Assembly: GCA_947589565.1 (NCBI GenBank)
Contig: CANQBW010000001.1
Coordinates: 48,687-112,686, forward strand
Length of the DNA stretch: 64,000 nt
DNA from: an uncultured Clostridia bacterium
GTDB taxonomy: Bacteria > Bacillota > Clostridia > Christensenellales > Borkfalkiaceae
Direction: 5' to 3'
The position numbers and the translations under genes are program-made. Positions 811 to 63,575 of this stretch are shown in pieces; the stretch's first letter is position 1, and each line of letters opens with the position of its first letter. A model generated the notes under the pieces. The model was not told the origin of the DNA. It saw only the letters and a program-made list of their open reading frames with translations, and did no database searches.

Positions 811-1247
811 TGACAGTGGTAAAAAGCGATGTCATTCCGAGCGTAGTCGACGACGCGCCCATTCTATTGTTTTTCCAAGCGCGGCGCACGAGCCGTAGGC
901 GAAGTATGAATCCCCTTAGCAAGCGACGGGACGTTTTTAAAATCGCTTTACAACATTCTATCGACCGAGGGGATCCATTCGACTTCGCGGCTTAAGCCGC
1001 TCCGCTCAGGATGACAAGTGGAATAACATGTCATTCTGAGCAGGCACCCGCAGGGTGCCGTCGTCGAAGAATCTCGCTTTTTGTTCTAAAATCCCTCGGT
1101 GCGAGCAGGGTTTCCCTGCGCTGCACGACTCAATTAGCCGAGCCTCGGCTTCTTGTTAAACAAGGCGACCGCGAGGACGTGGCATGTGAAGGCGCAAAAG
1201 TCAATTTCCTCGACGATAAATATTGCGCAGCAAGATTTTCGTCGAAA
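811..1247. repeat. modular intergenic repeat block R1 (modules A, B, C-inverted, F hairpin)
   Basis: 831-915 closely matches 18850-18929 and 31981-32065. 1078-1127 matches 17677-17723. 1205-1247 is the terminal hairpin module and directly abuts the cutC stop. Contains the local palindromes GCGGCTTAAGCCGC and CACCCGCAGGGTG. Confidence 0.85.
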
Positions 1248-1988
1248 TTAAAACCCATGTACGATTTTAGAACATTCGGAAAATTCCCCCTCGTCGGTGA
1301 AAAAGAGAGTGTCCTCGCGGACATTCGCAAAGCCCATGTTGACTTCTTCGCGCAAGAATTTCATCTTGCTCTTGATCGGTCTCTTGCAGGAGGCGTGAAA
1401 GACGTTGATCCCGCACGTTTCATGCAGATACACAATATTGCTCCGTCCGATTCCTCCGCCCGCCATGATGTCGAGCTCTTCCCCCGCCCGAAGGACGAGT
1501 TCCTTTAAAAGTCCCGCCCCCTCGCGGGCGGTGGGACGCTGTCCCGAGGTCAGAATGGTGTCAAAGCCGAGCGACTTCGCTGCTTTGAGCGCTTCAAAGG
1601 GGTCTCGGCACTTGTCGAAGGCACGGTGGAGCGTCATCTGTCCCCCTCCCGCGCGCTCACAGACCTGCAATAAAAACTCCCCGTCGAGGTCGCCGTCCTC
1701 CGTCAGGGCGCCGACGACGATTCCGTCCGCCCCGTAGCTGTCAAAGAGCTCGATCTCCCGCAAAATCTGCTCGCGCTCCTTTTTTCCATAGAGAAAATCC
1801 CCGCCGCGGGGCCGAATGAGCACGCGAATGGGGATGGGAAAATCCCTCCTCACCTGTTCGAAGAGGGCGATCGAGGGGGTGACGCCTCCGATTGAGAGCT
1901 GTCCGCACAGTTCGAGCCGGTCCGCGCCGCCCCGTACCGCGGCCGCCGCCGAACGATAGGAATCCACACATGCTTCGATGATCGCCAT
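1248..1988 (-). CDS. cutC: copper homeostasis protein CutC family
   Basis: ORF 1248..2021, with the start moved to ATG 1988 (MAIIEACVDS) behind a GGAGGGG SD. CutC-like blocks present: ADRLELC, IRPRGGDF, HRAFD, ILTSGQ, MAGGGI. Confidence 0.85.
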   Translation of the reverse strand: MAIIEACVDSYRSAAAAVRGGADRLELCGQLSIGGVTPSIALFEQVRRDFPIPIRVLIRPRGGDFLYGKKEREQILREIELFDSYGADGIVVGALTEDGDLDGEFLLQVCERAGGGQMTLHRAFDKCRDPFEALKAAKSLGFDTILTSGQRPTAREGAGLLKELVLRAGEELDIMAGGGIGRSNIVYLHETCGINVFHASCKRPIKSKMKFLREEVNMGFANVREDTLFFTDEGEFSECSKIVHGF

Positions 1989-2050
1989 ATTTTTCCCCTC
2001 CTTTTGACACGATTTTACCACAGCCGAGAAGAGAAGTCAAACGCTCGCGG

Positions 2051-2221
2051 TCAATTTTCCTCCTTTTCCCCTTCCTCCGCCCCCTCTTCGATCATTTCGT
2101 CAAATCCTTTCAGCGCGGCAAAGGGCGCAAACTGCGCCGCCCGCTCGGCGCGGGGCATTCGGGGATGATTCTTCGGCTCATAGTGCGGAAGATTTAAGAT
2201 GTCGTCGTAATTCTTTTCCAT
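2051..2221 (-). CDS. small protein coupled to the Y-family polymerase (possibly YolD-like)
   Basis: A 56-aa ORF below the track cutoff, found by hand: MEKNYDDILNLPHYEPKNHPRMPRAERAAQFAPFAALKGFDEMIEEGAEEGEKEEN. Its ATG shares one base with the polymerase TAA (TAATG). The RAAQFAPFAAL motif resembles small partners of Firmicute Y-family polymerases; this assignment is from memory and tentative. Confidence 0.5.
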   Translation of the reverse strand: MEKNYDDILNLPHYEPKNHPRMPRAERAAQFAPFAALKGFDEMIEEGAEEGEKEEN

Positions 2222-6234: not shown

Positions 6235-6264
6235 TGTTATGTCTGACATAATACTTCGCAAAAT
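6235..6264 (-). promoter_or_regulatory. 30-bp palindrome-containing element, copy A (promoter/operator candidate)
   Basis: Minus strand reads ATTTTGCGAAGTATTATGTCAGACATAACA, with core palindrome TATGTCAGACATA. It can be read as TTGCGA-16 nt-TAACAT. Lies 22 nt upstream of the 5887..6213 ORF. Confidence 0.5.
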
Positions 6265-7608: not shown

Positions 7609-8399
7609 AACACGTCCCCCTTGATCCCGTGATAGATTTCAAAAAATTTCTCTTCGAGAGAGAGGTCCCCGCAGAGGTCTTCAAGCGTCCCCTCGGCGAT
7701 CATTCTCCCGTCGATGATGATCCCCGCGCGATCGCAGAGCTTTTCAACGAGCGAAAAGATGTGCGTGGAGAGAAGAATACTCTTCCCCATCGCCTTGAGT
7801 TCAAGCAAGAAGTCAGTGACGACTTTCGCCGTGAGTACATCCAAGCCGTTGGTCGGCTCGTCGAAGATGACGACTTCGGGGTCGTGCACGATGGAGACGA
7901 CGAGGGAAATTTTTTGCGCCATGCCCGTGGAGAGGTCGGCAACGCGCACTTCTGCAAACCTGTCGATCCCGAACCGCGTAAAAAGCTCCTTCTTTCTCGC
8001 TGCGAGCGTAGCTTTGTCCACGCCGTGCATCGCACCGAAGAAATCGAAGAGATAGTCGGGAGTAAAGAATCCCTCTAATTTGAGCTCCCCCGTCATGAAC
8101 CCCATGCAGTCGCGCACCCGCGCGGCCTCTTTGCAGACGGAGTGTCCCATTACGAACGCATCCCCCTCATCCGGTTTGATGAGAGTCGAGAGCATTCGAA
8201 GAGTCGTCGTCTTGCCCGCGCCGTTGGGCCCGAGCAAGCCGTATATTTCGCCGCCGTAAGCGGAAAAAGAGAGTCCGTTTACGGCGACCTTGCGCGTGAG
8301 ATCGGTCTTTTCGATCCTGCGCTGTTTTCGTGAAATCGAGAAGGTTTTCTTGAGATTTTCCGCTCGGACGATCTCTTTTAACCCGTTTATGTCTGACAT
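7605..8399 (-). CDS. ABC transporter ATP-binding protein (NatA-like)
   Basis: Walker A GPNGAGKTT, signature LSTGMAQK, Walker B VIFDEPTNGLD. The track ORF begins at TTG 8411. The first ATG is 8399 (MSDINGLKEI) and lies inside 30-bp element B. Confidence 0.85.
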   Translation of the reverse strand: MSDINGLKEIVRAENLKKTFSISRKQRRIEKTDLTRKVAVNGLSFSAYGGEIYGLLGPNGAGKTTTLRMLSTLIKPDEGDAFVMGHSVCKEAARVRDCMGFMTGELKLEGFFTPDYLFDFFGAMHGVDKATLAARKKELFTRFGIDRFAEVRVADLSTGMAQKISLVVSIVHDPEVVIFDEPTNGLDVLTAKVVTDFLLELKAMGKSILLSTHIFSLVEKLCDRAGIIIDGRMIAEGTLEDLCGDLSLEEKFFEIYHGIKGDVL

Positions 8400-8414
8400 A
8401 GTACCTCGCAAAAG
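8385..8414 (-). promoter_or_regulatory. 30-bp palindrome-containing element, copy B
   Basis: Minus strand reads CTTTTGCGAGGTACTATGTCAGACATAAAC. It overlaps the start codon of the NatA-like ATPase; the ATG of the palindrome is the candidate start. Confidence 0.45.
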
Positions 8415-10732: not shown

Positions 10733-11627
10733 AAATCTCTATGACCTCCCGCGCCGCAGGTTTGACGTCCTTGGGCGTGATCCAATGCAAATTCTGCGTC
10801 TTTTTGAAAAAAGTCAGCTGTCTTTTGGCATAATTGCGGGTATTTTTCTTGATTATGTCTGACATAGTACTATGCAAATCGCCGTTTTTCAAAGATTCGA
10901 TGACTTCTTTGTACCCAATCCCCTGCATACACTGCGCAGTTTCCTTCACGCCGCTTGCAAGAAGCCCCCTCACCTCTTCGACGAGTCCCGCCTCTATCAT
11001 CTCGTCCACGCGGCGGTCGATCCGCACATAGAGCTCCTCTCGCGGGAAGGAAAAGGCAAAGGCGGAGAAGGGATAGCGGGGAATGGGCAAATCGTGCTGT
11101 TCGGACTTCTTTTTGCCCGTTGCTTCAAAAATTTCGAGCGCACGAATGACCCGTTTTTCGTCGTTGGGGTGCAATTTTTCCGCGCTCTCGGGGTCCACTT
11201 CCTTCAGCTTTTCATAGAGAAATTGCTGCCCCTTTTCGCGGGAGAGCGCCTCGAGGCGGGCGCGGATATTTTCGTCCTTGGGGGTATTTCCGTAGGAATT
11301 GCGATAGAGCAGCGCATTCAGATAGAATCCTGTTCCGCCGCAAAGGATCGGCGTCTTCCCGCGCGACAAAATGTCCTCTAAGATGGGAAGCGCCATCTTT
11401 TCGTAGTCACCGACGGAGAAATTTTGGGTGGGTTCAACGACGTCGATCATGTGGTGGACGACTCCCCCGCGCTCTTTTAACGTTGGCTTTGCCGTCCCGA
11501 TATTCAATCCTTTATAAACAAGAAGGGCGTCGACGGAGATAATTTCTCCATTTAAAAGTTTTGCGCACTCGACAGAGAGGGCGGTCTTCCCCGAGGCGGT
11601 GGGCCCGCAGATGACGAGAATTTTCAT
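10719..11627 (-). CDS. miaA: tRNA dimethylallyltransferase
   Basis: P-loop GPTASGKT, ISVDALLVYKGLNIGTAKP, and C-terminal NTRNYAKRQLTFF. Confidence 0.92.
   Translation of the reverse strand: MKILVICGPTASGKTALSVECAKLLNGEIISVDALLVYKGLNIGTAKPTLKERGGVVHHMIDVVEPTQNFSVGDYEKMALPILEDILSRGKTPILCGGTGFYLNALLYRNSYGNTPKDENIRARLEALSREKGQQFLYEKLKEVDPESAEKLHPNDEKRVIRALEIFEATGKKKSEQHDLPIPRYPFSAFAFSFPREELYVRIDRRVDEMIEAGLVEEVRGLLASGVKETAQCMQGIGYKEVIESLKNGDLHSTMSDIIKKNTRNYAKRQLTFFKKTQNLHWITPKDVKPAAREVIEIYGQN
10851..10880 (-). promoter_or_regulatory. 30-bp palindrome-containing element, copy C (inside the miaA 3' region)
   Basis: Minus strand reads GATTTGCATAGTACTATGTCAGACATAATC. It encodes DLHSTMSDII of MiaA and lies 119-148 nt upstream of the ynbB ATG. 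Confidence 0.45.
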
Positions 11628-15990: not shown

Positions 15991-17306
15991 AGCCTGTTCT
16001 CCTCCGTGCCGTAAAGAGAGACGCCGTTCGCTTGCCCAATCCTGAGCGTGACGAACTCGCCGATCAAATTCTTATCGCTTGCAAAATAGCCCATTCTGCC
16101 CTCCTCGTTCCTGCCGAGGTAGAGTTTTTTCTTCTCATCGAAGTCCTCGCAGAGAATTTCCGTCCTCTTTCCGACGAAGCGCGCGCTCTTTTTCCGCGTG
16201 TTCTCGTTGACCTTCTCCACGAGGCGCATGATGCGGTCCTTTGCGGTCTCCTCGTCGATCTTTCCCTCCATTGCGGCGGCCTTGGTCCCCGTGCGGGGGG
16301 AATAGATGAAGGTGAACGCCGAGGAAAAGTCCGCCTCTTCGACGAGGGAGAGGGTGTCTTGAAACTCCTCCTCCGTCTCCGTGGGAAAGCCCACGATGAG
16401 GTCGCTCGTCACATCGCAGCCGGGGATCATCTCCCGCAGCATGGCGATCTCTTCCAGATATTTTTCGCGGGTGTAGCGCCTGTTCATGAGGGAGAGAATA
16501 CGATTGTTTCCCGACTGCGCGGGAAGGTGCAGAAGGTTGCAGACGTTCTCTCTTTTTGCCATGACGGAGGCAAGCTCCCGCGTGAAGTCCTTGGGATGAG
16601 AGGTCATGAACCGCACCCGATACTTTCCCCCGAAGGAAGCGCAGGCGGAGAGAAGCTCGGGAAAGCTCATTTCCCCCCTTCCGTCGCTGTTGAAGGAGTT
16701 GACGTTCTGCCCGAGAAGCGTAATTTCCTTATAGCCCTCTTCTAAGAGTCCCTCAACTTCGCGCAAAATATCTTTGGCGCTTCTCGAACGCTCCCTGCCC
16801 CGAACATAGGGCACAATGCAGTAGGTGCAGAAGTTGTTGCAGCCGTAGGTGATGTTCACCCAGGCGTTGGGATAGCTTGTCCGAACGGGACTTATCCCGT
16901 CCTCCGTCTCTCCCCGCTCATCATGCACGGAGAGCAGGAATTTTTTGACTCTTCTCCTCTGTTCGATGAGAGAGGAGAGCTCCCCCAAATTGTGGGTGCC
17001 GAAGATGATATCGATGAAGGGAAACTTCTTTTTGAGGATTTCCGCTTTTCCCGCCTCCTGCGTCATACAGCCGCCGACGGCGATGAGAAGATACTTCTTC
17101 TCCCGCTTGAGCTTTTTGAGTGCGCCGATGTTTCCGAAGGCGTGATTTTCGGCGTTTTCGCGGATACAGCAGGTGTTGAAGACGATGATGTCCGCCTCTT
17201 CGAGGGGAACTTCCTTTTCGTAGCCGAGCCCCTTCAAAACGCCCGCGATCTTCTCCGACTCATGCAGATTCATCTGACAGCCGTATGTGACGATGTGATA
17301 GTTCAT
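15987..17306 (-). CDS. miaB: tRNA-2-methylthio-N6-dimethylallyladenosine synthase
   Basis: Start moved to ATG 17306 (MNYHIVTYGCQMN) behind AAAGGGA. Radical-SAM motif CNNFCTYCIVP. The 35-codon upstream extension in the track lies inside repeat block R2. Confidence 0.9.
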   Translation of the reverse strand: MNYHIVTYGCQMNLHESEKIAGVLKGLGYEKEVPLEEADIIVFNTCCIRENAENHAFGNIGALKKLKREKKYLLIAVGGCMTQEAGKAEILKKKFPFIDIIFGTHNLGELSSLIEQRRRVKKFLLSVHDERGETEDGISPVRTSYPNAWVNITYGCNNFCTYCIVPYVRGRERSRSAKDILREVEGLLEEGYKEITLLGQNVNSFNSDGRGEMSFPELLSACASFGGKYRVRFMTSHPKDFTRELASVMAKRENVCNLLHLPAQSGNNRILSLMNRRYTREKYLEEIAMLREMIPGCDVTSDLIVGFPTETEEEFQDTLSLVEEADFSSAFTFIYSPRTGTKAAAMEGKIDEETAKDRIMRLVEKVNENTRKKSARFVGKRTEILCEDFDEKKKLYLGRNEEGRMGYFASDKNLIGEFVTLRIGQANGVSLYGTEENRL

Positions 17307-17324
17307 AAATAATCCCTTTAATAT

Positions 17325-17943
17325 TTCGAACGAAATCTTCCTACGGAATCTTTCGTTCGAGGAAATGAGCTTGTTTGCCTTGATTTTTTTGGTCGTCTCG
17401 TTCGCTTTCACAACAATGTGCGTCCTGTGGGGCGCCTATTGAGTACTGCAGCGCAAAAGCGTGGTTTTGCTCGCACACATTATTTTTTAAAACAAAGGAC
17501 TGATTTCTGCTTGCTTAGGGGATTCCCGTTCGCTGCGCTCACTTTACTTCGCCTACGGCTCGTGCGCCGCGTATGGATTCTCAATAGAACGACGCGTCGT
17601 CGACTTCGCTCAGGATGACAGATCAAAAAGCGTTGTCATGTTGAGCGGAACGAAGTGAAGTCGAAACATCTCGCCCTTTGTTCTAAATCCATCGGTGCGA
17701 GCAGGGTTTCCCTGCGCTGCACGCCCCTGTTTGCGAGCCACCGCACGCTTCTTGTCGTTTGAAACGAATGAGAGTGGAGCGTTGCATTCCTGCTCAACAG
17801 CCCGGTGGGCTGTGAGTGCAACGCGACAGCCGAGCTGGTGGCGAGGCGTGGTGAGGCGGGCGCTACCGCCGAACCGGGCTATGGGAACTCGAAAGCTCAT
17901 TTCCTCGACGATAAATATTCCGAAGGAAGATTTTCGTCGAAAT
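17325..17943. repeat. modular repeat block R2: foldback element with inverted ~45-nt hairpin termini
   Basis: The left end 17325-17372 (TTTCGAACGAAATCTTCC..CGAGGAAATGAGC) is the inverted counterpart of the right end 17898-17943. Internal modules: C (17391-17425), A inverted (17518-17620), B (17677-17723). Fills the whole cobB-miaB spacer. Confidence 0.85.
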
Positions 17944-18639
17944 TCAAGACAGTACTTTTCCCACTTTTTCATGCAGGACGAGGTCGCAGCGGTCGTCGTA
18001 GGGTGTCGCGTCGCGGTTGATGAGGACGGAATATCTGCCGCGGAAGTAGTCGATGAATCCCGCCGCGGGATAGACGGAGAGAGAAGTCCCCGCAACGATG
18101 AGCATGTCCGCATGTCTGATCGCGTCGATCGCGCCGCGGACGGTGTCCTCGTCGAGCGGCTCACCGTAGAGGACGACGTCGGGCTTGATAAGTCCCCCGC
18201 AGGGACACTTGGGAACTCCGGAACTTTTCGCAATTTCCTCCGCCGAGAAGAATTTTCCGCATTTGAGGCAGTGATTTCTGTGAATGCTGCCGTGCAGCTC
18301 ATAGACTCGCTTGCTCCCCGCCTTTTGGTGGAGTCCGTCGATGTTCTGGGTGACGATCGCAAGGAGTTTCCCCTCTCTCTCCCACTCGGCGAGCTTTTTG
18401 TGCGCGGCGTTGGGCTGCGCCCAAAGCGGGAGCATCTTGTCCCGATAAAATTTATAAAATTCCTCGGTATGCGAGAAAAAGTAGTCGCTCGAGAGAATGG
18501 TCTCGGGCGGAACATCGTATTTTTGCCGATAGAGCCCGTCCTCCGAACGAAAGTCGGGAATGCCGCTCTCCGTCGAGACCCCCGCCCCGCCGAAAAAGAC
18601 GATCTTCGAGCTCTCTTCGATCATTTCTTGAAAAGTCAT
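17944..18639 (-). CDS. cobB: NAD-dependent protein deacylase (Sir2 family)
   Basis: GAGVSTESGIPDFRS, TQNIDGLH, and the Zn ribbon CLKC...CPCGG. Confidence 0.9.
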   Translation of the reverse strand: MTFQEMIEESSKIVFFGGAGVSTESGIPDFRSEDGLYRQKYDVPPETILSSDYFFSHTEEFYKFYRDKMLPLWAQPNAAHKKLAEWEREGKLLAIVTQNIDGLHQKAGSKRVYELHGSIHRNHCLKCGKFFSAEEIAKSSGVPKCPCGGLIKPDVVLYGEPLDEDTVRGAIDAIRHADMLIVAGTSLSVYPAAGFIDYFRGRYSVLINRDATPYDDRCDLVLHEKVGKVLS

Positions 18640-18669: not shown

Positions 18670-18945
18670 CTTCTGTCATTCTGAGTGGAGCGAAGCGGAA
18701 TCGAAGAATCCCCCCGGTCATTATACAAGAAGTATTGCGCTTCCCTACGCCGCTCTATTTTCCCTATTATAACATATCCAACCAAAAATTTCAACAAAAA
18801 TCACGGGTTACTTTTTCGTTTTCCCCTGTCATCCTGAGCGGAGTGGCGTAGCCACGAAGTCGACGACGCGCCATTCTATTGTTTTTCCAAGCGCGGCGCA
18901 CGAGCCGTAAGCGAGTAATGGATCCCCCCGATCGTTAGATTGTTG
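18670..18945. repeat. modular repeat block R3
   Basis: 18673-18713 reads TGTCATTCTGAGTGGAGCGAAGCGGAATCGAAGAATCCCC. 18828-18929 is a module A copy with an extra GTGGCGTAGCCAC hairpin, and from 18850 on it is near-identical to 831-915. Confidence 0.8.
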
Positions 18946-22363: not shown

Positions 22364-23469
22364 CAGAGTTTCTCCTTCCACTCCCGTGCGCACGCATTCA
22401 ATGCGTCTGCCGCGGTCAAAATTTCCTTCTCCGTGATCTCGGGGAAAAAGCTCATGCGAAGGACGCCGTCAAGTACGTCCTCGGGATACCCGCACGCCTT
22501 TAAAATGCGGCTGTGGGGGTGCTTTGAGGAACACGCGCTCCCCGTTCCGACGATGACGCCGTTTAAATCAAGCATTCTCTGTAAAACTTCCCCCCTCATG
22601 CCCCGCGCCGAGACCGTCAAAATATACGGCGAGCCCGCTTCCGTCGAAATGCGGGTGAAAATTTCCGGGTCGAGGGAGGAAAAGAGCAATTCCCGAAGTT
22701 TTAAAAACTTCTCCGCGCGCACTTTCAGATCCTTCAGCTCCTGCGCCGCATAGAAAAAGCACAAAATTCCGAGTACATTCTCGGTGCCGCTCCTGAGATT
22801 CCCCTCCTGTCCGCCGCCGAACAGGTAGCTTTGCGGAAGGGTCCCCTTGCGAAAGAGCAGCGCCCCCGTCCCCTTGATCCCGCCGATCTTGTGGGCGCTG
22901 ACGGAATAGAGGTCGATCTCCTTTCCGAGCCGAACCGGGATCTTTCCGAACGCCTGAACGCCGTCGCTGTGAAATTTGCAGCGCGGATTTTTGCGCTTGA
23001 CCGCCTTGGCGAGAGCATTGATGTCGTTGACCGCCCCCGTCTCGCTGTTGACATGGACGACGGAGACGAGGGAAGTCTTCTCATCCACCAGGGAGAGAAG
23101 CTCCTCTTCCGTCACGCTTCCGTCCTTTTCCACCCTTGCAAATCTCGGCTCCACGCCGAAATCCTTACATTTTTTAAAACAATTCTCCACGGCGGGGTGC
23201 TCCCCCATCGTTGTGACGGCGTTTCCGCGCCGCGCAAAGGAGAAGATCGCCTGATTGTCCGCCTCGGTGCCCCCCGAGGTGAAGAGGAGCGAGAACTCGG
23301 GAAATAACTCCGTGAAAAATTCCCGCGCCCGCTCGATCTCTCTTCGAACATTCACCGCCTCCGCGTACTGCGCGGAGGGATTGAAATAGTTTTCGGCATA
23401 GAACTTCTCCGCCCGCTCAAGCGCTTCTTTCACGGGCGCAGTCGTTGCCGCATTGTCAAGATAGATCAT
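22363..23469 (-). CDS. nifS: cysteine desulfurase (NifS/IscS class V aminotransferase)
   Basis: MIYLDNAATT, SAHKIGGIKGTG (PLP lysine), and GSACSS (active-site Cys loop). Confidence 0.9.
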   Translation of the reverse strand: MIYLDNAATTAPVKEALERAEKFYAENYFNPSAQYAEAVNVRREIERAREFFTELFPEFSLLFTSGGTEADNQAIFSFARRGNAVTTMGEHPAVENCFKKCKDFGVEPRFARVEKDGSVTEEELLSLVDEKTSLVSVVHVNSETGAVNDINALAKAVKRKNPRCKFHSDGVQAFGKIPVRLGKEIDLYSVSAHKIGGIKGTGALLFRKGTLPQSYLFGGGQEGNLRSGTENVLGILCFFYAAQELKDLKVRAEKFLKLRELLFSSLDPEIFTRISTEAGSPYILTVSARGMRGEVLQRMLDLNGVIVGTGSACSSKHPHSRILKACGYPEDVLDGVLRMSFFPEITEKEILTAADALNACAREWKEKL

Positions 23470-28611: not shown

Positions 28612-28641
28612 TAGTATGTCAGACATAATACTATGCAAATC
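28612..28641 (-). promoter_or_regulatory. 30-bp palindrome-containing element, copy D (candidate carA promoter/operator)
   Basis: Minus strand reads GATTTGCATAGTATTATGTCTGACATACTA. It can be read as TTGCAT-16 nt-TACTAT. It begins at the thioesterase TGA and ends 33 nt before the carA ATG. Confidence 0.5.
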
Positions 28642-31221: not shown

Positions 31222-31399
31222 TAAAATTCCAAATAAAAGGCGCGTTGGAAAATCACACTTTTCCATAAGCGCACTCAAGTTGCCGAACCCTTTCGGCTTA
31301 TTGTCGTTTGAAACGAACGAGACGACCAGGCTGTGGGAACTCGAGAGCTCATTTCCTCGAACGTAAATATTTCCGTAGGAAAGATTTCGTTCGAAAAAT
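31222..31399. repeat. modular repeat block R4 (lone 'right arm', ends in the F hairpin)
   Basis: Collinear with the reverse complement of 31757-31921 (GCGCGTTGGRAAATC..TTTTCCATAAGCGCACTCAA..ATTGTYGT..GAACGAGACGACC..CATTTCCTCGA..). The hairpin at 31352-31396 lies 6 nt beyond the XRE stop. Confidence 0.85.
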
Positions 31400-31402
31400 T
31401 TT

Positions 31403-31612
31403 CTACCAATCCTTCTTCCCGCAAAGTTCATCGATGGAAACAGAGAAGAGATCGGAGAGCAGCCAAAGGCAGGAGAGAGTCGGCTCCGTCTTTTTTTGCT
31501 CCCATTCGCTGACACACTGCTGCGTCACCCCTATCTTTTTGGCGAGCGCAGCCTGCGACATTTTATTCTCTATGCGGAAAGCCCTTAAATTTTCCGCAAA
31601 TTTGGTTTCCAT
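31403..31612 (-). CDS. XRE-family helix-turn-helix transcriptional regulator
   Basis: Start moved to ATG 31612 (METKFAENLRAFRIENKMSQAALAKKIGVTQQCVSEWEQKKTEP). This is a canonical HTH_3 domain. No purine-rich SD precedes the ATG. Confidence 0.8.
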   Translation of the reverse strand: METKFAENLRAFRIENKMSQAALAKKIGVTQQCVSEWEQKKTEPTLSCLWLLSDLFSVSIDELCGKKDW

Positions 31613-31700: not shown

Positions 31701-31754
31701 ATGAGGAAGAAAATGCGCGGTGGGTTCAACTCGCCGCGCATTTACTTGTTTTAG
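31701..31754 (+). CDS. candidate 17-codon sORF (MRKKMRGGFNSPRIYLF)
   Basis: GGTGAGG (31687-31693) lies 7 nt before the ATG, about 20 nt downstream of the predicted TSS. The 3' half is embedded in a hairpin. No homology is known to me. Confidence 0.25.
   Translation: MRKKMRGGFNSPRIYLF
31713..31752 (+). terminator. hairpin plus T-rich tail (weak terminator or attenuator)
   Basis: ATGCGCGG (31713-31720) pairs perfectly with CCGCGCAT (31734-31741), followed by TTACTTGTTTT. Confidence 0.4.
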
Positions 31755-31756
31755 GT

Positions 31757-32075: not shown

Positions 32076-32105
32076 AATGCCCATATTACGAAAAGCGTTG
32101 CGGGG

Positions 32106-32140: not shown

Positions 32141-32221
32141 GCGCTACTTTTTTGTATTCGTAAAAAAGTAGCAAACGCTCGTCATGCGGAAACGACAATC
32201 AAAAGCGGATTGACGCAAAAC

Positions 32222-51456: not shown

Positions 51457-51469
51457 AATTTCTTTTGAG

Positions 51470-51936
51470 TAGGTTTCGTCGAAAAGCTCGCTTCGCGATC
51501 TTTCTCGACGAGGAAATAGACCATTTTGCCTTGAATTGCTTGGTCGTCTCGTTCGCTTTCACGACAATAAGCGTGCGGTGGCTCGCAAACAGGGGCGTGC
51601 AGCGCAGGGAAACCCTGCTCGCACCATGGGATTGCAAAAACGTCCCGTCGATAGCTTAGGGGATCCATTACTCGCCTTAAGGCTCGTGCGCCGCGTATGG
51701 ATTCTCAATAAAACGACGCGTCGTCGACTGCGCTCGGAATGACATCGCTTTTTACATGCCCTTCTAAATTTTACTGCGCGGAGCAAAACCACGCTTTTGC
51801 GGCAGCGCCCTCAATTTGCGCGACCCTTCGCGCTTATTGTCGTGAAAGCGACCGTGAGAGTGACTTAATCAAGGCAAAAAGGCAAGTTTCCTCGAACGTA
51901 AATATTTCCGAAGGAAAGATTTCGTTCGAAAATAGA
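51470..51936. repeat. modular repeat block R6: foldback element with inverted hairpin termini
   Basis: Left terminus 51474-51516 (an F variant) and right terminus 51887-51931 (F inverted). Internal modules: C (51542-51575), B inverted (51596-51625), A inverted (51658-51743), and an inverted arm at 51790-51886. Fills the whole spacer between the 51938 ORF and pcrA. Confidence 0.85.
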
Positions 51937-51937
51937 G

Positions 51938-52333
51938 TTATACTCTTCCCTTTATCTCAAACTCATACTCCCGCTTGAAGCGCTCGAGTGCCTTTAAGTA
52001 CTTGTCCGAGAGTTCGAGCATGTATCTCTGCTTTTCGGAATAGCTGAGGGTCGCGTAATATTCCTTGTCGGTGAGCCTTCCGATCGCGTCGGACACTTCC
52101 CCCTCGCAGAGAAGAAGATCGCGGACTTTGAGGTAGAACTCGTCTTTGGTGTCGTCGCCTCTGATCTCGGTGACGACCTTCTGCTGGAAATAGCGCTCCA
52201 TCTTGCTTTCGTTGATCCCTTGCTGCTTGGCATGATTGCGTTCGTTGTCCAGTTTCGCTTCACATTCCTTCCAGAACCCCTTCTTCATGCGCTGCTTCGC
52301 CTCTTTTGCAAGCATCTTTAGCGTTCTTTCCAT
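51938..52333 (-). CDS. hypothetical protein (charged, helical)
   Basis: Start moved to ATG 52333 (MERTLKMLAKEAK) behind GGAGGAG. 131 aa and K/E-rich. No family recognised. Follows rpsU. Confidence 0.5.
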   Translation of the reverse strand: MERTLKMLAKEAKQRMKKGFWKECEAKLDNERNHAKQQGINESKMERYFQQKVVTEIRGDDTKDEFYLKVRDLLLCEGEVSDAIGRLTDKEYYATLSYSEKQRYMLELSDKYLKALERFKREYEFEIKGRV

Positions 52334-55725: not shown

Positions 55726-55769
55726 ACTTTCCTCGAGCGAAAGATTCCGCAGGAAGATTTCGTTCGAAA
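55726..55769. repeat. solitary F hairpin module (R7)
   Basis: TTTCCTCGAGCGAAAGATTCC-GCA-GGAAGATTTCGTTCGAAA, directly abutting the lipoprotein stop (55770). Confidence 0.8.
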
Positions 55770-57257
55770 TTACGTTAAACTGATTTTTACCGTGATTTGA
55801 TTGCTCTCGGTAAGGATCTCCTTCCACTCCTCCGCGGAAAGGCCCTGTATGTGTCCGAGTTTGGTATAGCTCCAGGAGTTACTGCCGTAGAAGAGGACGA
55901 TCTGATTTCCCGAGTAGAGAATGACGTCCCCCGCCTCGGTCGTCATTTGCGTGTCGCTCCGCGGAAGGGTATGCCCCAAATTTCCGACTTTCTCAAAACC
56001 GCCGTAGTCGCTCGCGGTATAGGTAATGTCCCCCTCTTTCAGAAGTTCGATCAGGGCCTCTACTGCGGCGTTTTGTTCGAGCTTCACCGAAATTTTATGG
56101 TCGTTGATGAAAAGGAAAATTTCGTCCTTCATCTCTTCCTCCTCTTGCGCACCCCCTTCGTCGAACAATTTTAGTCTGAGCGCGGGAACAACGCCGAGCG
56201 AAGTGAAATACACATATTGATTGTACTCGGAATATCCGCCGCCGTCCACATAACGGGCGTAAAAATCATATCGGTCGTTGGAAGATCGCAGCCACCAGCG
56301 TGCGCCTCCGTCCATGTTCAATCCCTGCGCCTTTGCGTAGTCGGTCGCATCGAGCGCTCTCTCTTCGTCGGAGGAAAAATACGCCGCGTTCGTCGCTTCA
56401 TCATAACTCAAGAGGTAGAGTTTGTCGCCGTCTCCGAAGAGATTTTTCTGTTCCCCTTCCGAGAACGCCGTCCGATAGAAGTCACCGTTCAAAAATTCCC
56501 GAACAGAGCTTGCCTCATAGTCGTTTGCCTTGTGTCCGTTCTCCCCCTTTGCCGCGGGAAAAAACTCATGACTGTCAAGGACTTTCTCGCTTAAGAGGAG
56601 AGCATACCCGTCCGCCTTTTCCAAGACGCGCCAGGAGAGCGTTTCATACAAAAACCAATATGTTTCGTTTATGGAATAGCCGTTTTCGTCCTGATAGCTG
56701 CGGTTTTCCGTGCCCTCGCTCCTCGTATCGTTGGGACGATAGCTCGAAAAGCGCACCCCTCGGTACCTGTTTGATCGATATTCAACATCGACATACTCCA
56801 TAAACTCGGAAACTTCCCCGCCGATGTAATATTGGTAAGAGGTCCGCTCTTCCGTTTCGCCGAGAGCATTGAGATCGGTTATAAGACCGCTATCCGTCAC
56901 CCGCGACTGCGGGTAGCTTCCGAAATAGACCGTCTTTCCGTCCTCACTCACCTTGTACGCCTGATCCGATTCGGAAGATTCCGTCTCTGGATCGTCGGGA
57001 TTAGCCGGCGTTGACGGCTCTTCGATCGGCTCACTCGGTGTTTGCTGCTGATTCCCGTTTTGACTGCCCTCCTCTTTTTCGCCGCCGCCTGCGTCGGACT
57101 CGTTTTCACGATCGGATCCTTCGGGGGCAGGCGTCTCGCCGCCACTGATTTCGGAACCATTTCCTTGAACGGAACTTTCGCGGTTTTCTCCGCACGCCGC
57201 AAAGGCAAGACAAAATACGAAGATGATCGCCGTCAAAACCGTCAAAAATTTCCGCAT
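55770..57257 (-). CDS. lipoprotein with a C-terminal cyclophilin-like domain
   Basis: Signal peptide with lipobox LAFAAC, then an acidic S/E/G/P-rich linker. The central domain has a VYFGSYPQ motif. The C-terminal ~120 aa (IFLFINDHKISVKLEQN...VILYSGNQIVLFYGSNSWSYTKLG) resembles cyclophilin-like fold proteins; that assignment is from memory. Confidence 0.7.
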   Translation of the reverse strand: MRKFLTVLTAIIFVFCLAFAACGENRESSVQGNGSEISGGETPAPEGSDRENESDAGGGEKEEGSQNGNQQQTPSEPIEEPSTPANPDDPETESSESDQAYKVSEDGKTVYFGSYPQSRVTDSGLITDLNALGETEERTSYQYYIGGEVSEFMEYVDVEYRSNRYRGVRFSSYRPNDTRSEGTENRSYQDENGYSINETYWFLYETLSWRVLEKADGYALLLSEKVLDSHEFFPAAKGENGHKANDYEASSVREFLNGDFYRTAFSEGEQKNLFGDGDKLYLLSYDEATNAAYFSSDEERALDATDYAKAQGLNMDGGARWWLRSSNDRYDFYARYVDGGGYSEYNQYVYFTSLGVVPALRLKLFDEGGAQEEEEMKDEIFLFINDHKISVKLEQNAAVEALIELLKEGDITYTASDYGGFEKVGNLGHTLPRSDTQMTTEAGDVILYSGNQIVLFYGSNSWSYTKLGHIQGLSAEEWKEILTESNQITVKISLT

Positions 57258-58381: not shown

Positions 58382-59278
58382 ATGGAACTGAGGGAACTCA
58401 AATATTTTTTGGCGGTCGCGCGGGAAGAGAGCATTCTGAAGGCTTCGGAAAAGCTCTATGTCTCCCAGCCCAATCTCTCGCGGCAGATGAAGGGATTGGA
58501 AGAGGAACTCGGGCAGCAGCTCTTTCTTCGCGGGAGCAGAAAGATCACACTCACCGAGGCGGGGGAACTTCTCAAAAAACGCGCAGAGGAGCTTTTGGAA
58601 CTGTATGAAAAGACGAGAGCGGAACTCTCCTCCCCCATCACGGAAGTTGCGGGCGACGTCTGGATCGGCGGGGGCGAAAGCCATGCCATGAGGCTCATTG
58701 CAAGGACTGCGCAGACGGTGCACCGGAAATTTCCGGACGTGCATGTCCGTCTCTTCAGCGGAGACGTTGCGGGAACGACGGAAAAATTGGACAAGGGTTT
58801 GCTCGACTTCGGCGTCCTCATCGAGCCCGCCGATCTATCGAAATATGACTCTCTGCGACTCCCCCTCACGGACACTTGGGGAGTTCTCATGAGGAGGGAC
58901 AGCCTCCTCGCGGAGAGAGACTTCGTTACGCCGAAGGACCTGTGGGACAAGCCGCTCATATGCTCCGAACATTCCCTTGAAAAGAGCATGATCTCCGACT
59001 GGTTTCAAAAAAAGGTGGGCGAGCTCAACGTCATCGGCACATACAACCTGCTCTACAACGCCTCCTTGCTCGTGCGGGAAGGATTCGGCTACGCCGTCTG
59101 TCTTGACAAGATCATTCCGAGCGATGAAGAAATTACCTTCCGTCCCCTGTTCCCGCAAGTCGTCTCTCATCTCGATCTCGTCCGGAAGAAGAACCAAATC
59201 TTCCCCAAATGCTGCGAAGTCTTTTTGAAGGAACTGAAAAGCATCCTCGATTTACCCTCAATGAAACAGTGCAATTAA
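58382..59278 (+). CDS. LysR family transcriptional regulator
   Basis: MELRELKYFLAVAREESILKASEKLYVSQPNLSRQMKGLEEELG is a canonical LysR wHTH. Divergent from the hydrolase gene. Confidence 0.92.
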   Translation: MELRELKYFLAVAREESILKASEKLYVSQPNLSRQMKGLEEELGQQLFLRGSRKITLTEAGELLKKRAEELLELYEKTRAELSSPITEVAGDVWIGGGESHAMRLIARTAQTVHRKFPDVHVRLFSGDVAGTTEKLDKGLLDFGVLIEPADLSKYDSLRLPLTDTWGVLMRRDSLLAERDFVTPKDLWDKPLICSEHSLEKSMISDWFQKKVGELNVIGTYNLLYNASLLVREGFGYAVCLDKIIPSDEEITFRPLFPQVVSHLDLVRKKNQIFPKCCEVFLKELKSILDLPSMKQCN

Positions 59279-59284: not shown

Positions 59285-59738
59285 TCGCCGCGCTACTTTC
59301 GTAGCGCGGCGCACTGGACTTTGTTCTGAATTGCTCTTTAATAAGGACGAGATTCTTACTCGCCCCTTTCCTTTAAGGACGAGATTCTTCAACTGCGCAA
59401 CGCGTTGCGTTGCTCCGTTCAGAATGACAGGAAAGGTGCTCGTGCGCCGCGCTTCGATAAGCAATAGAACGGCGCGTCGTCGACTCCACTTCGTTCCGCT
59501 CAACATGACAGGAAAGGGGCTCGTGCGCCGCGCTACTTTCGTAGCGCGGCGCATCGCTCTTTGTTCTGAAATTACTGCGCGGAGCAGAATCGCCATTCTG
59601 CGGCAGCGCACCCTATACGCGCCCCACCGGACGCACATTGTTAAACAAGGCGACCGTGAGAGTGAGCAAGTGAAGGTACGGCGGTTCATTTCCTCGACAA
59701 AAATATTGCGCAGCAAGATTTTTGCCGAAACAAAATTT
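59285..59738. repeat. modular repeat block R8
   Basis: GC hairpin CGCCGCGCTACTTTCGTAGCGCGGCG at about 59289-59314, repeated at about 59527-59552. AAGGACGAGATTCTT occurs twice. A partial inverted module A lies at 59436-59510, an inverted arm at 59570-59688, and an F variant at 59689-59730, 8 nt from the lipoprotein stop. Confidence 0.85.
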
Positions 59739-61547
59739 TTACATTTCCACTTTATGATCCCCGCACAGGATACAAATTTCGCGCGTGGAGCCGTCCTCCT
59801 CCTTCTCAACGTCCTTTGCGCCGAGAAGAGAACTTGTATACATGCTGAAGACGTAAGTCGTTTCATGAACGACTGTTCCGTTCGCGTCCTTTTGTGTGAA
59901 CGTGACGATGAAATAGTCCTCGTCCGCAAAATAATTTGCATCATAGTTCGCCCTTCCGGTGTAGACGTCCGAGGCGTAGGTCATAAGCAGCTCTAAGACG
60001 TCTTCGTAATCGTCCTCAAAGTCATCGTAGAACTCCTCGACGAGGCTCGCGCCCTCCGTCTTCTTTCCGCCCTTTTCGGTGACGCTCTTCGTTCCGTCTG
60101 TTGTGACGGTCTCCCCGTCCTTGACCCTCTTGATGCGGATCCCCTCCGTATTGTAGAGGTCGAGGACCATCTCGCATTCCTCTTTGCCGTCGACCGAGGT
60201 CTTGATATGATAGTTGTTGTTTGCAAAGACCGCTTCCAAGCCTCCGCTCGCCCTTGTGCGCGTGATAGAGATCAGAGAGCCGAACATGTTCTGAGCCGTA
60301 GTTGACTCGATGGGACCGACTTCCTTGTCGAAGATCGATTCGTCGGGGTAGACTTCAAAATCCAACCATGTGGGCTGTCCTTCCATCTCGGTCACGTCCA
60401 CGGGATCGGGAATTTCGATGGGATAGTTCCCGACGAGCACTCTCACGGTAGCGTCCTCTCCCGCAGCGGGGGGCTGGGAAATGTCGTACATCAGCTGGCT
60501 CTGAGAATTATAATTCAATCCCGCGATCTTGTTGCCGAGAAGGGCATATTCCACAGTGATATTTTCGGTGAGCACACCGCCGTAGCCCATTCCGTAATCA
60601 ACGTTGTTGACGAGTGTGACCTCGAGCTTGAGCACAGTATATTCTCCCTCCGTGCGGTAGGAGACCCTGATATCATGTCCGAACAGGCTCGGCGCGATGG
60701 AGAAGGTTCCCCAGAGGTTGTAGACGGCATTTTCGGCGAGCGACAGGCCGCTGTCCTTGAAGTTGTAGCCGTAGATGACGCTCTCATACTCCTCATACGC
60801 TGCGTCCCCCTCCGCAATGTAATTGATGGGATCCGTCTCTCCCGTGTTGGGCTCCCGCAGGTTGATCTGACATTTCAGATCCTTGCTCGACTTGAGATCT
60901 TCCTCCAAGCCCGAGAGCTTATAGCTCCACAGAACGGAACCCCCCTGAATGACGCGGAATGAGATGTCGCCCTCCGCAAAGCCGCAGCCGATACCGAGTT
61001 TTCGGGTCGCAGCGTCCACAAAATCCTCCACACGGTCGATATCATTCTCCGAAGTGACAGCGGTGAAATTCCCCTCGAAGATATCGTCGGTCAAGTTGTC
61101 CTTGTCGGGATCATCTGCTGAAGGTTTGTCCGTTCCGGGATCCTCTGTTCCCGGATCGTCTGTGCCGGGATCCTCTGTTCCCGGATCGTCTGTGCCGGGA
61201 TCGCCTGTGTCGGGTTTATCCTTGCCGGGATCGCCCGTATCCGGTTTCTCTTTATCCGTATCACCTGTGTCGGGTTTATCCTTGCCGGGATCGCCCGTAT
61301 CGGGTTTAGAATAATCGGGGTCGGGATAGCCGCAGACGACGCATTTTCCCTCCTCAAAGAGATGGGGCTGTTTCCCCGAGATCTCGTCCGTGTGTTCGCA
61401 GGTCGCCTTGTGCCAGTGATCGGTCGAGTTCTTGCTCCACTCCTCCGAAAATGTATGCGTATGCGCAGTCTCTCCGCAGGCAGACATCGCAAAGACAGCC
61501 GCCGACAGTAGCGCACAGACGGAGAAGAGCGTTTTTTTATGCTTCAT
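59739..61547 (-). CDS. lipoprotein with a His/Cys-rich module and a PDTGDPGKDK tandem repeat
   Basis: Start moved to ATG 61547 (MKHKKTLFSVCALLSAAVFAMSAC lipobox). Contains HTHTFSEEWSKNSTDHWHKATCEHTD...CVVCGY, then D/P/G/T/K repeats, then a domain of about 430 aa with no family recognised. Confidence 0.7.
   Translation of the reverse strand: MKHKKTLFSVCALLSAAVFAMSACGETAHTHTFSEEWSKNSTDHWHKATCEHTDEISGKQPHLFEEGKCVVCGYPDPDYSKPDTGDPGKDKPDTGDTDKEKPDTGDPGKDKPDTGDPGTDDPGTEDPGTDDPGTEDPGTDKPSADDPDKDNLTDDIFEGNFTAVTSENDIDRVEDFVDAATRKLGIGCGFAEGDISFRVIQGGSVLWSYKLSGLEEDLKSSKDLKCQINLREPNTGETDPINYIAEGDAAYEEYESVIYGYNFKDSGLSLAENAVYNLWGTFSIAPSLFGHDIRVSYRTEGEYTVLKLEVTLVNNVDYGMGYGGVLTENITVEYALLGNKIAGLNYNSQSQLMYDISQPPAAGEDATVRVLVGNYPIEIPDPVDVTEMEGQPTWLDFEVYPDESIFDKEVGPIESTTAQNMFGSLISITRTRASGGLEAVFANNNYHIKTSVDGKEECEMVLDLYNTEGIRIKRVKDGETVTTDGTKSVTEKGGKKTEGASLVEEFYDDFEDDYEDVLELLMTYASDVYTGRANYDANYFADEDYFIVTFTQKDANGTVVHETTYVFSMYTSSLLGAKDVEKEEDGSTREICILCGDHKVEM
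61135..61307 (-). repeat. in-frame tandem repeat (15/30/60-nt periodicity) inside the lipoprotein gene
   Basis: CCGGGATCCTCTGTTCCCGGATCGTCTGTG is perfectly duplicated at 61135-61164 and 61165-61194. GTCGGGTTTATCCTTGCCGGGATCGCCCGTATC recurs at 61210 and 61270. Confidence 0.9.
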
Positions 61548-61620
61548 GAATGTTTTCCCCCTCATACTTGTACTGTCCCTATTTTATCACCTATGGCGTG
61601 ATTTGTCAATACCTATATTT

Positions 61621-61985
61621 TAGTTTCGAACGAAATCTTCCCTTCGGGAATATTTACGTTCGAGGAAATGAGCTTGTTTGCCTTGATTAAGTTGTCCTCT
61701 CGTTCGCTTTCACAACAATGTGCGTCCCATGGGGCGACTTCGCTACGCTCCGCTCAACATGACAGTGGTAAAAAACATGTCATTCTGAGCGAAGTGGCTT
61801 AAGCCACGGAGTCGAAAGTGAGCGCAGCGAACGTGAATCCCCTAAGCAAGCGACGGGACGTTCCTAAAATCGTAATACCACATTCTAACGACCGGGGGGA
61901 TTCATACTCACCTAAAGGCTCGTGCGCCGCATATGGATTCTCAATAGAACGGCGCGTCGTCGACTGCGCTCAGAATGACAACGTT
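61621..61985. repeat. modular repeat block R9
   Basis: F hairpin at 61624-61668, module C at 61692-61727, TGACAGTGGTAAAAA (as at 811-825), the GTGGCTTAAGCCAC hairpin, AAGCGACGGGACGTT (as at 920-934), and inverted module A at 61895-61980. Confidence 0.85.
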
Positions 61986-61992
61986 TTTTAAA

Positions 61993-63228
61993 TCACCGCA
62001 AAAATCGTCGGGTATATAAAAGGTCGACGTCCTCGAAGAGGTGGTTCGGGGTCCAGGGAATGAGGATATCGGGCAAAACGCCCCTGCCGCGCATTCCCTT
62101 CCCCTCGTCGATCGCCCTGCTGCGCGAGGTGGGATAATGCAAAACGTAATCTCCGAAATCGCAATACGCTAAATTCGAATAGTCCAAAAATCCCATCGTC
62201 GGACGGCCGACCACAGTAACTTTGTCGAGTTTTTTGAAAATTTGGACAAAGCTCTCCCCCGAAGAGCCGCAGCCGTCATCCGTCAGAACGACGACCTTTT
62301 CCGGAAGGCAGGTGCCCTGCTCCGCAAAGAAAAGGTTGTCCTCTTTCATGGACACGAAGCCTTTGCCCCTGTTTTCGATCTGCTCCTCGATGCGCTCGGT
62401 TAAATATCGGCGCACCTCTTCGGACGCAGAACTTTCGAGGTAACTTTGATATAATTTGATGCGGTTTTGGGCGTTGCGCTCGGTGCAGAGGATCTCCTCT
62501 TCCGAAGAGAAGATCGGCTTTCCGCAGAGGGGGTCGTCCTCTTTGAGGCAATATTTCAGAAGGGGCAAAAACACCGTGTCGCTGCCGCCGCAGTTTTCCC
62601 GCACGTCGAAGATGAGAAAGCGGGAATGCTCGATCTCCACTCTGTTTCTTTCGAGAAAAGATTGCATTTCCATCTCGTCGAAAAAGTTGAAAAATCGCAA
62701 AAGGAGCGTATTTTCGTCGATTTTTTGCGCCTCAAAAGAGGGTCTCTTTGTCCTTTCGATCCCCGTCTTGACGGGATACGAAGTGCATTTCCCGCCCCTT
62801 CGGACGGTCAGTTCTTTGGAAAAGGAGATGATCTTCTCCCAAGCCTCTCCCTGCCTATCCTCTGCTTCAAAAAAGAAGTCGGGAAACTTCTCTGCGGTTT
62901 CGGGAATGCTCGCGCCGTCGATTTTTAGAATCTCGTCTCCCTTGAGGAGAGTATCTTTTTCGGAATTTGTGACAAAGAGACTGTCTTGAAAGCGCCTTAA
63001 GCGAAAGCCGATCGACCGATCGTCGCCTTTCCGATAAAAATACAGGTGCCCGCGGACGCCGAAAGAGGCAAGATATTGTTCGACGGCAAAGAGAAAGTCC
63101 CTCTCTCCCATTTGACCGGAAATGCCGCGGAGAAACTTTTCCGCATCTCCGCCCGAAAGGTCTCTGCAAAACGAGGCGTCCGTCTTGCAGATTTCAACAA
63201 TTTCCCGTGCAATTTCCGTCTTTTTCAT
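61993..63228 (-). CDS. S41 family peptidase (tail-specific/Tricorn-core-like), cytoplasmic type
   Basis: Start moved to ATG 63228 (MKKTEIAREI) behind GAGGAG. FDVRENCGGSD and DDGCGSSGESF (Ser nucleophile region) fit peptidase S41. Confidence 0.72.
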   Translation of the reverse strand: MKKTEIAREIVEICKTDASFCRDLSGGDAEKFLRGISGQMGERDFLFAVEQYLASFGVRGHLYFYRKGDDRSIGFRLRRFQDSLFVTNSEKDTLLKGDEILKIDGASIPETAEKFPDFFFEAEDRQGEAWEKIISFSKELTVRRGGKCTSYPVKTGIERTKRPSFEAQKIDENTLLLRFFNFFDEMEMQSFLERNRVEIEHSRFLIFDVRENCGGSDTVFLPLLKYCLKEDDPLCGKPIFSSEEEILCTERNAQNRIKLYQSYLESSASEEVRRYLTERIEEQIENRGKGFVSMKEDNLFFAEQGTCLPEKVVVLTDDGCGSSGESFVQIFKKLDKVTVVGRPTMGFLDYSNLAYCDFGDYVLHYPTSRSRAIDEGKGMRGRGVLPDILIPWTPNHLFEDVDLLYTRRFLR

Positions 63229-63311
63229 TGGCTCCTCTTTTGAAAAACAATAAGCCGCAAAATTGCGGCAAATTGTAATAGAATTTATTTCGACAACTCG
63301 CAATATCGCTT

Positions 63312-63575
63312 GTTTGACGACCGGGGGGATCCTTCAACTTCGCTGACGCTTCGTTCAGGATGACGTCGTTTTCTACCACTGTCATGTTGAGCGAAACGAA
63401 GTGGAGTCGAAACATCTCTACCTTATTGTCAGAACAAAGGACGAGATTCTTACTCGCCTAAAGGCTCGTGAGGCGCGTATGGATTCTCTATAGAACGACG
63501 CGCCTTCGACTGCGCTCAGAATGACAATTTTTTTTCCTCGAACGAAAGATTCCGCAGGAAGATTTCGTTCGAAAC
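63312..63575. repeat. modular repeat block R10
   Basis: GACCGGGGGGAT (as at 61890), a CAGGATGAC..GTCATGTTGAGCG hairpin, AAGGACGAGATTCTTACTCGCC (as at 59343), inverted module A at about 63445-63525, and the F hairpin at 63533-63574, 1 nt from the next stop codon. Confidence 0.85.

Follow-up and report, generated by a model that had tools for sequence, protein, structure and literature searches.

We have found that a short hairpin-forming repeat, here called module F, forms the outward-facing ends of mosaic repeat blocks in the genome of an uncultured Clostridia bacterium, and that these hairpins are placed far from at random, most of those that face a stop codon lying only a few nucleotides downstream of it. 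The module was first noticed in a 64,000-nt stretch of this genome (the window, i.e., positions 48687-112686 of contig C1 of genome G000), and all positions given below without a contig are those of the window. The junctions between genes and hairpins are biased in sequence, the genes next to them have shortened C-termini, at three junctions the displaced native tail can still be recognized, the stem covaries, and the element has undergone a burst in this one species. The reading that we favor is that F is a mobile repeat resembling repetitive extragenic palindromic (REP) elements and bacterial interspersed mosaic elements (BIMEs), in which an insertion bias toward gene ends would act together with purifying selection, the phasing with stop codons thus arising at the DNA level; we consider this reading probable, if with restrained confidence.

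G000 is a 1.59-Mb metagenome-assembled genome (MAG) made of 73 contigs, 93% complete and with ca. 55% G+C, for which our own caller, based on open reading frames (ORFs) and codon usage, gave 1280 genes (85% coding). A hidden Markov model (HMM) trained on the 11 copies of the window, the scores of which were bimodally distributed, retrieved 202 copies of F in G000 at a cut-off of at least 25 bits, 193 of them full at their 5' end. Repeat blocks, defined by self-BLAST of the genome, numbered 399 and covered 107 kb, i.e., 6.7% of the assembly. The consensus of the module (42-46 nt) reads TTTCG-N4-AAA(A)YCT up to a 3-nt loop and ATMTTT-N4'-CGAGGAAA after it, TTTCG and CGAGGAAA being the invariant termini. 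The hairpin starts at the first base of the module and consists of two G.U pairs followed by 7-11 pairs, then a small internal mismatch, 4-5 further pairs and a triloop, which corrects the stem of 14-16 bp with a 2-nt mismatch described in the first-pass annotation of the window. Its mean minimum free energy as RNA was -16.9 kcal/mol, and it also folds in its native context. Among 109 unique sequences from several species, the 4-nt box of the stem appeared in at least 15 fully complementary versions (for example GCGG/CCGC, GCAC/GTGC and GTGA/TCAC). The GAGGAAA end of the module runs into other repeat modules in 187 of the 193 copies and the TTTCG end meets unique DNA; a long ORF ended within 9 nt of only two inner ends, against 103 outer ones. 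The composite blocks span 170-630 nt, and their interiors are shuffled mosaics of modules that recur independently. Most have F at one end only, but in 19 of the 133 F-containing blocks both ends carry it, as inverted repeats (17324-17942 and 51474-51931, for example).

The distance from F to the nearest gene end was measured from the stop codon to the first T of TTTCG. Outer ends facing unique DNA were 170, with 125 of them directed toward a stop and 45 toward a start, and 96 of the 125 were found 0-9 nt from a called stop, most commonly at 1-4 nt. When the gene calls were set aside and any ORF of 80 codons or more was accepted if it ended 0-9 nt ahead of TTTCG, 103 of the 193 copies were phased, compared to 5.4 expected for random positions and 10.5 for random non-coding positions, so that the genome-wide comparison with chance proposed in the first-pass annotation gives a phasing far beyond expectation. 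The same was found under a null model with uniform placement in the collapsed spacer of each block (70 of 106 blocks observed, 20.4 +/- 2.9 expected), also when the collapsed spacer was of at least 60 nt (41 of 68 observed, 2.9 +/- 1.7 expected). Blocks were present in 61% of the convergent spacers (72/118), and in 16% of both the tandem (156/967) and the divergent ones (20/123). The copies located away from stops formed three groups: those after a genuine terminator tail, those after a 14-nt half-F that itself abuts a stop, and those just upstream of a ribosome-binding site or promoter.

The window contains all 11 copies originally described, four on the plus strand and seven on the minus strand, and they are listed here together with the terminator that precedes one of them.

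1205-1247, minus strand: F hairpin, 0 nt from the CutC stop (1248-1250); right end of block 808-1256.
17324-17365, plus strand: F hairpin, left end of block 17315-17947; its outer end is ca. 20 nt upstream of the start codon of the miaB-like gene (17303).
17900-17942, minus strand: F hairpin, right end of block 17315-17947; 1 nt after the Sir2 stop (TGA, 17944-17946).
31352-31396, minus strand: F hairpin, right end of block 31225-31409; a 69-aa HTH/XRE gene has its stop (31403-31405) 6 nt before it.
31715-31753, plus strand: intrinsic-terminator hairpin with U-rich tail; hairpin 31715-31739, -26.2 kcal/mol, z -5.9.
31756-31797, plus strand: F hairpin, left end of block 31747-32216; the terminator tail immediately precedes it.
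51474-51516, plus strand: F hairpin, GTCG variant, left end of block 51465-51934; it lies 17 nt upstream of the start codon of pcrA (51456).
51887-51931, minus strand: F hairpin, right end of block 51465-51934; 6 nt after the stop of a 131-aa ORF (51938-52333).
55728-55769, minus strand: solo F hairpin, at 0 nt from the stop of ORF 55770-57257; ca. 50 nt of free spacer to the -35 box of the next promoter (55678).
59689-59730, minus strand: F hairpin, right end of block 59286-59742; ORF 59739-61547 has its stop 8 nt before it.
61624-61668, plus strand: F hairpin, left end of block 61615-61990; it lies 14 nt upstream of the -35 box (61609-61604) in the promoter of ORF 59739-61547.
63533-63574, minus strand: F hairpin, right end of block 63325-63582; ORF 63576-64385 has its stop 1 nt before it.

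The first-pass annotation had placed F 0-8 nt after the stops of seven named genes, always in the same relative orientation. The distances hold (0, 1, 6, 6, 0, 8, and 1 nt), save that F lies 1 nt and not 0 nt from the Sir2 stop (TGA-A-TTTCG). The orientation is indeed constant, but it carries no evidential weight because F simply is the outward-facing end module of the blocks. An eighth site, taken for the stop of a small ORF at 31754, turned out to be the U-rich tail of the terminator hairpin 31715-31739, so that the copy there follows a terminator and not a gene. The names given to the genes were borne out by Pfam (CutC, Sir2, HTH_3 of the XRE type, MiaB-like and PcrA/UvrD), and the copies near 17324, 51474, and 61624 are, as described, the ends of composite blocks upstream of the starts of the miaB-like gene, pcrA and ORF 59739-61547. 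The convergent gene 58382-59278 has its stop 8 nt from the non-F end of block 59286-59742. We also noticed that the ORF-based call gave the miaB-like gene 36 codons too many, which run into the repeat block (17303-17411); alignment to 18 relatives puts the true start at the ATG at 17303, and similar annotation errors are likely elsewhere in G000.

A simple explanation of this distribution would be selection acting as a filter, with insertion at random and the survivors found just after stops as the only neutral DNA in a compact genome. Several features are in agreement with it: the repeat-free tandem gaps have a median of 12 nt, tandem spacers typically leave 60-150 nt on the side of the start, which is roughly what a promoter and a 5' untranslated region (UTR) occupy, block ends other than F are also often within 25 nt of stops, and the copy at 61624 halts 14 nt before a -35 box. 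However, even where a convergent spacer offers 100-480 nt on the opposite side, F is found right against the stop, and the solo copy at 55728 leaves ca. 50 nt unused before the next promoter. Neither does a filter predict the sequence of the junctions. The stop codons adjoining F were TAA in 64 cases, TAG in 16 and TGA in 16, the repeat-free non-overlapping genes having ca. 57% TAA, 7.5% TAG, and 35% TGA. The spacer between stop and hairpin contained only five C in 284 nt, being rich in purines (AAAG, AAGG, GGG), and a purine preceded F at position -1 in 139 of 170 copies. TAR followed by purines was found before F even in 15 of 74 contexts without a called stop, some of which are uncalled genes, against a background of 5.8%. 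Within the last ca. 10 codons of the F-adjacent genes, C at the third position fell from ca. 0.55 to ca. 0.10 (from 0.40 to 0.16-0.3 in controls). Finally, a filter does not account for a shortening of C-termini that is specific to F and was not seen at other block ends adjacent to stops (see below). For these reasons we regard a selection filter alone as quite unlikely, and the first-pass suggestion that the element targets gene ends when it inserts gains weight, since placement was non-random even with 60-480 nt of spacer free and the junctions are biased. As a separate observation, the body of the F-adjacent genes has a third-position C of ca. 0.55-0.6 and a third-position G+C of ca. 0.8, compared to 0.40 and 0.70 in other genes, a hint that the blocks favor positions behind genes with strong codon bias and possibly high expression.

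The comparison of gene ends with relatives lacking the element, also proposed for the window, was carried out orthologue by orthologue against 1.55 Mb of the same-genus relative G011, and it sharpens the picture of gene-end targeting. From 44 F-adjacent genes, 22 were shorter in G000, two longer and 20 equal (sign test 3.6e-5), the shortening being of 1-4 codons with a maximum of 15. Control genes (477) showed no such asymmetry (103 shorter, 99 longer, 275 equal), nor did 62 stops located next to a repeat block but without a stop-phased F (20 shorter, 17 longer, 25 equal). Along the last 30 coding nucleotides F-adjacent genes had 4.07 C against 6.82 in their orthologues, compared to 6.46 against 6.39 for controls. 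Where the ends were equal and the stop in G011 was TGA, G000 had TAA or TAG in four of four F-adjacent genes, while controls kept TGA in 84 of 138. The stop-to-F spacer of the shortened genes never exceeded 6 nt, too short to hold the old tail, and therefore the new stop is at the junction and a mutation to stop upstream of an intact old tail was rejected. At three junctions (G000 C1 40285, C7 15960 and Sir2) the native last codons, the stop and the downstream sequence were still recognizable beyond the far end of the block, which indicates that blocks inserted inside coding tails, with no deletion. At the last of these, the Sir2 and miaB-like genes overlap (ATGA) or abut in 18 congeners, while G000 has a 633-nt block with F at both ends; the two nearest relatives carry in the same place an unrelated block of ca. 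430 nt made of other modules, and in G011 and G013 this junction is filled by modules bounded by TGTCATYCTGAGCG and CGCTCAGRATGACA. The alignments thus support that F-ended blocks inserted at or inside the last codons and that the present stop is often new.

From these data the process can be outlined as follows. Blocks ended by F would enter the extreme 3' end of ORFs where the sequence is poor in C and rich in purines, about one half of them landing a few nucleotides after the native stop and the other half inside the last 1-4 codons (up to 15). Purifying selection would then keep only copies that both retain a stop in frame (TAA or TAG in most cases) no more than 0-9 nt from the hairpin and spare promoters and ribosome-binding sites. 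The folded strand of F would presumably be recognized by an enzyme acting in trans.

The hairpin might instead be maintained after stops for the benefit of the mRNA, as a block to 3'-5' exonucleases, a processed 3' end or a device tuning termination and translation of the upstream gene, roles of the kind reported for REPs. The stem covaries, and its G.U pairs, including the invariant closing pairs T1.G and T2.G, fit folding in the sense of the gene; the C-depleted and G-retaining sequence upstream of F would remain unpaired; the phasing with stops is conserved across species; and 0-9 nt after the stop is the range where REPs of E. coli stall ribosomes. Against such a function, F is nearly limited to one species, being rare or not found in the sampled congeners, ca. 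100 unrelated genes would need to have acquired the same requirement simultaneously, and 39 terminal F ends face gene starts. Besides, the sense strand is barely more stable than the antisense (-15.5 vs. -15.1 kcal/mol), and shortened proteins and displaced native tails are left unaccounted for. A selected RNA function as the origin of the phasing seems to us unlikely; an effect of the hairpins on mRNA or translation is plausible. In about 100 genes (8%) the stop is followed within 0-9 nt by a hairpin with an energy of ca. -15 to -19 kcal/mol, the start of which falls inside the downstream mRNA footprint of the ribosome. By analogy with those REPs of E. coli that are less than 16 nt from a stop, these hairpins may slow termination, protect the 3' end of the mRNA, or both.

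A role of F as transcription terminator, either for the upstream gene or for antisense transcription entering from the block, is very improbable. It is true that a stable hairpin at gene ends is what a terminator looks like and that the antisense strand has a short T-run after the hairpin, where spacer and stop are read as their complement (AA-CCTTTTA, for instance). However, in the gene sense the stem is followed by GGAAAT(G/A) and no U-tract, and F is therefore not a canonical terminator. A terminator scan flagged just the inner 5-bp stem of one copy, F is positioned after true terminators where these exist, and the blocks contain separate terminator-like modules (GGGACAC..GTGTCCC followed by T8). 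This last module, with GTTACTTTTTTTGTATTCGTAAAAAAAGTAAC after the T8, is recurrent in the blocks and resembles a tandem double terminator (32090-32216 in the window; C1:8330-8440, C33:19070-19190 and others in G000); it may be what ends transcripts that read through F. Rfam gave no match in the whole window at gathering thresholds, and none with E up to 1 on the block region 17200-18050.

The distribution of F among relatives shows that the element expanded in this one species of uncultured Clostridia. A degenerate pattern of the module had 167 matches in G000 and between zero and nine in 24 sampled genomes of the same genus (five with any), and it had none in 16 sampled genomes from other families of the order. 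A scan of genome collections detected the same F architecture in many MAGs of "uncultured Clostridia bacterium" from rabbit gut, several of these matches coinciding in contig and coordinates with the same-genus genomes that we had sampled. In the MAGs of other species a long ORF ended 0-7 nt upstream of F in 24 of 63 copies. The non-F modules of the blocks are found more widely in the genus than F itself. Carriage by phages was searched among the viral contigs of IMG/VR, which gave one chance-like match only. The XRE gene of the window, bracketed by inverted F arms, was considered as a candidate for an element-encoded gene and rejected, since congeners have orthologues with 74-81% identity, among them G010 and G013, both without F in the pattern census.

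Known families of small repeats offer several points of comparison. In REP-rich bacteria most REPs are located less than 20 bp from the 3' ends of ORFs, and those of the GTAG type can themselves provide the stop codon (Di Nocera et al., 2013, PMC3733652). In E. coli, according to PMC12306157 citing Liang, Rudd and Deutscher (2015), about half of the REPs are within 15 nt of a stop, stalling ribosomes and lowering expression. The analogy of F with REPs is apt; proximity to stop codons is a published property of the latter (PMC3733652; PMC12306157). Like the REPs and BIMEs of Enterobacteria and Pseudomonas, F is a short imperfect palindrome, strictly extragenic, with hundreds of copies; it is enriched between convergent and tandem genes near their 3' ends, it is found in inverted pairs and in mosaic clusters with linker modules, and its variants preserve the stem through compensatory changes. 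Unlike them, F is A/T-rich and 42-46 nt long (REPs are G+C-rich and of 20-40 nt), and it is the end piece of composite blocks of 170-630 nt and not a free-standing unit. Its host is a gut member of the Clostridia with a small genome, a group that is mentioned neither in PMC3733652 nor in PMC12306157. F thus behaves like REP/BIME elements but departs from them in two REP features, the terminal tag and the REP-associated tyrosine transposase (RAYT): it has no conserved GTAG/CGTC tag, CGTC appearing only in some stem variants, and no RAYT gene was found in G000, nor any F-flanked Y1 gene in relatives, with the exception of a truncated copy near two F units in G005.

Bacterial MITEs (miniature inverted-repeat transposable elements) and foldback elements such as Correia, RUP, and Nezha share with the F blocks the non-autonomous and intergenic character, the lineage-specific expansion, and the presence of inverted repeats at both ends, in the 19 of 133 blocks that have them. 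Unlike MITEs, no target-site duplication was seen and no parent insertion sequence (IS) with matching ends was found; F stands at only one end of most blocks, and the interiors are shuffled mosaics. The palindrome-associated transposable elements (PATEs) derived from IS200/IS605 are similar in having a hairpin at the element end, no target-site duplication, strand-specific folding and insertion beside a short flanking motif, which for F is a degenerate purine run of the type A-A-R-G or T-R-R. However, the motif flanking F is not a fixed tetra- or pentanucleotide, some blocks have F in inverted orientation at their two ends, neither TnpA nor TnpB was found in G000, and the IS200 fragment near F in G005 has its own, unrelated hairpin.

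A number of points weigh against F being a mobile repeat with gene-end insertion bias, the first being that no candidate mobilizer could be located. A six-frame search of G000 (93% complete) detected no Y1/RAYT (PF01797), TnpB, IS110, rve, or DDE_Tnp_1 domain, absence from a MAG being no proof of absence, and the rve, DDE_Tnp_1, IS110, and TnpB searches did not find a parent IS with F-like ends in G000 either. IS200-like Y1 genes are present in 15 of 61 genomes of the genus, unflanked by F or by other modules of G000 with one exception in G005. No target-site duplication was found at the solo copies of F, at the F..F blocks examined or at the resolved junctions. Contigs of the same species from five European Nucleotide Archive (ENA) samples were 99.9-100% identical including the blocks, with no polymorphism of presence or absence, and thus no recent mobility is visible. 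At the three resolved junctions, the new in-frame stop falls within 3-4 nt (TAAA, TGAG, TGAA) that belong neither to the native sequence nor to the F consensus. Lastly, G011 is only ca. 70-75% identical to G000, hence the ancestral states are coarse, and our gene caller is home-made and crude, the criterion based on ORFs only giving the same result. The exception in G005 (C20:2986-6216) is a truncated IS200-type Y1 gene with the HUH motif, cut after ca. 90 aa and followed by an unrelated ORF; it lies ca. 300 nt downstream of two F units and has a left-end hairpin of its own, CCCCCAG..CTGGGGG, unrelated to F.

In a more radical and rather improbable explanation, the repeats bring or create their own stop. 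They would enter the last codons together with a 3-4-nt T-R-A-R filler that becomes the new in-frame stop, and would be moved by a machinery unrelated to Y1/RAYT, TnpB, IS110, rve, and DDE_Tnp_1, possibly coupled to the termination of transcription or translation. If this were true, stop-creating repeats that home to gene ends would have rewritten the 3' ends of ca. 8% of the genes.

Returning to the blocks themselves, other recurrent pieces were observed. Modules bounded by TGTCATYCTGAGCG and CGCTCAGRATGACA (17634-17678, 18674-18718, and 63380-63424 in the window) are present in many blocks and are found genus-wide, being commoner across the genus than F. Eleven copies of a 14-nt half-F (TTTCGTCGAAAAGG, itself a mini-palindrome, TTTCG-T-CGAAA) are located right after a stop or terminator and right before a full F, for example at C2:55072, C16:23158, C17 (reverse complement) 31460, C37:8141, C39:236, and C67 (reverse complement) 3189; no matching remainder that would make the half-F a target split by nested insertion was detected at the far ends of the blocks. 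A long leader co-mobilized upstream of F was rejected, the identity of the anchored flanks extending only ca. 8-11 nt. Three paralogous operons, in which a Gly/Glu-rich membrane protein ending in GYFDGMKP is followed by a gene starting with MIKWLLPLG, have a different mosaic block at the same junction between stop and ribosome-binding site (C9:7096-7497, C33:8787-9374, and C33:18888-19247). What looked like a small multi-copy cargo gene between inward-facing copies of F was discarded, corresponding to these three junctions (GMKP and stop, then MIKWL), each with its block.

Two further features of the window concern other subjects. A 13-bp palindrome, TATGTCWGACATA, within the longer sequence GCATAGTACTATGTCAGACATAATA, appears at 6237-6263, 8387-8413, 10853-10879, and 28614-28640, with another copy beyond a block at ca. 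39890 of C1 of G000; one of the copies is conserved beside the same gene end in G011. It resembles the operator of a transcription factor rather than a repeat module. An ORF of 1347 aa that fuses CarB and DapF (23469-27512, minus strand) aligns over its full length (residues 1-1347) with 80-81% identity to single frames in two relatives of the same genus, and therefore it is conserved and not an assembly artifact.

The behavior typical of REPs, i.e., hugging of stops, mosaic structure and preference for convergent spacers, extends with module F to a lineage of uncultured Clostridia with a small genome, with neither a GTAG/CGTC tag nor a RAYT found, which reopens the question of what mobilizes such hairpins. 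The evidence from orthologues indicates that the repeats invade the last codons of genes and replace native stops, rather than only settling after them. On the practical side, blocks of this kind break short-read assemblies and mislead the annotation of starts and stops, as in the case of the miaB start. In a single species ca. 100 protein C-termini and 3' UTRs have been remodeled, and the ca. 100 genes whose stop is followed within 0-9 nt by a stable hairpin provide a natural test set for the study of termination, ribosome rescue and mRNA decay in Firmicutes.

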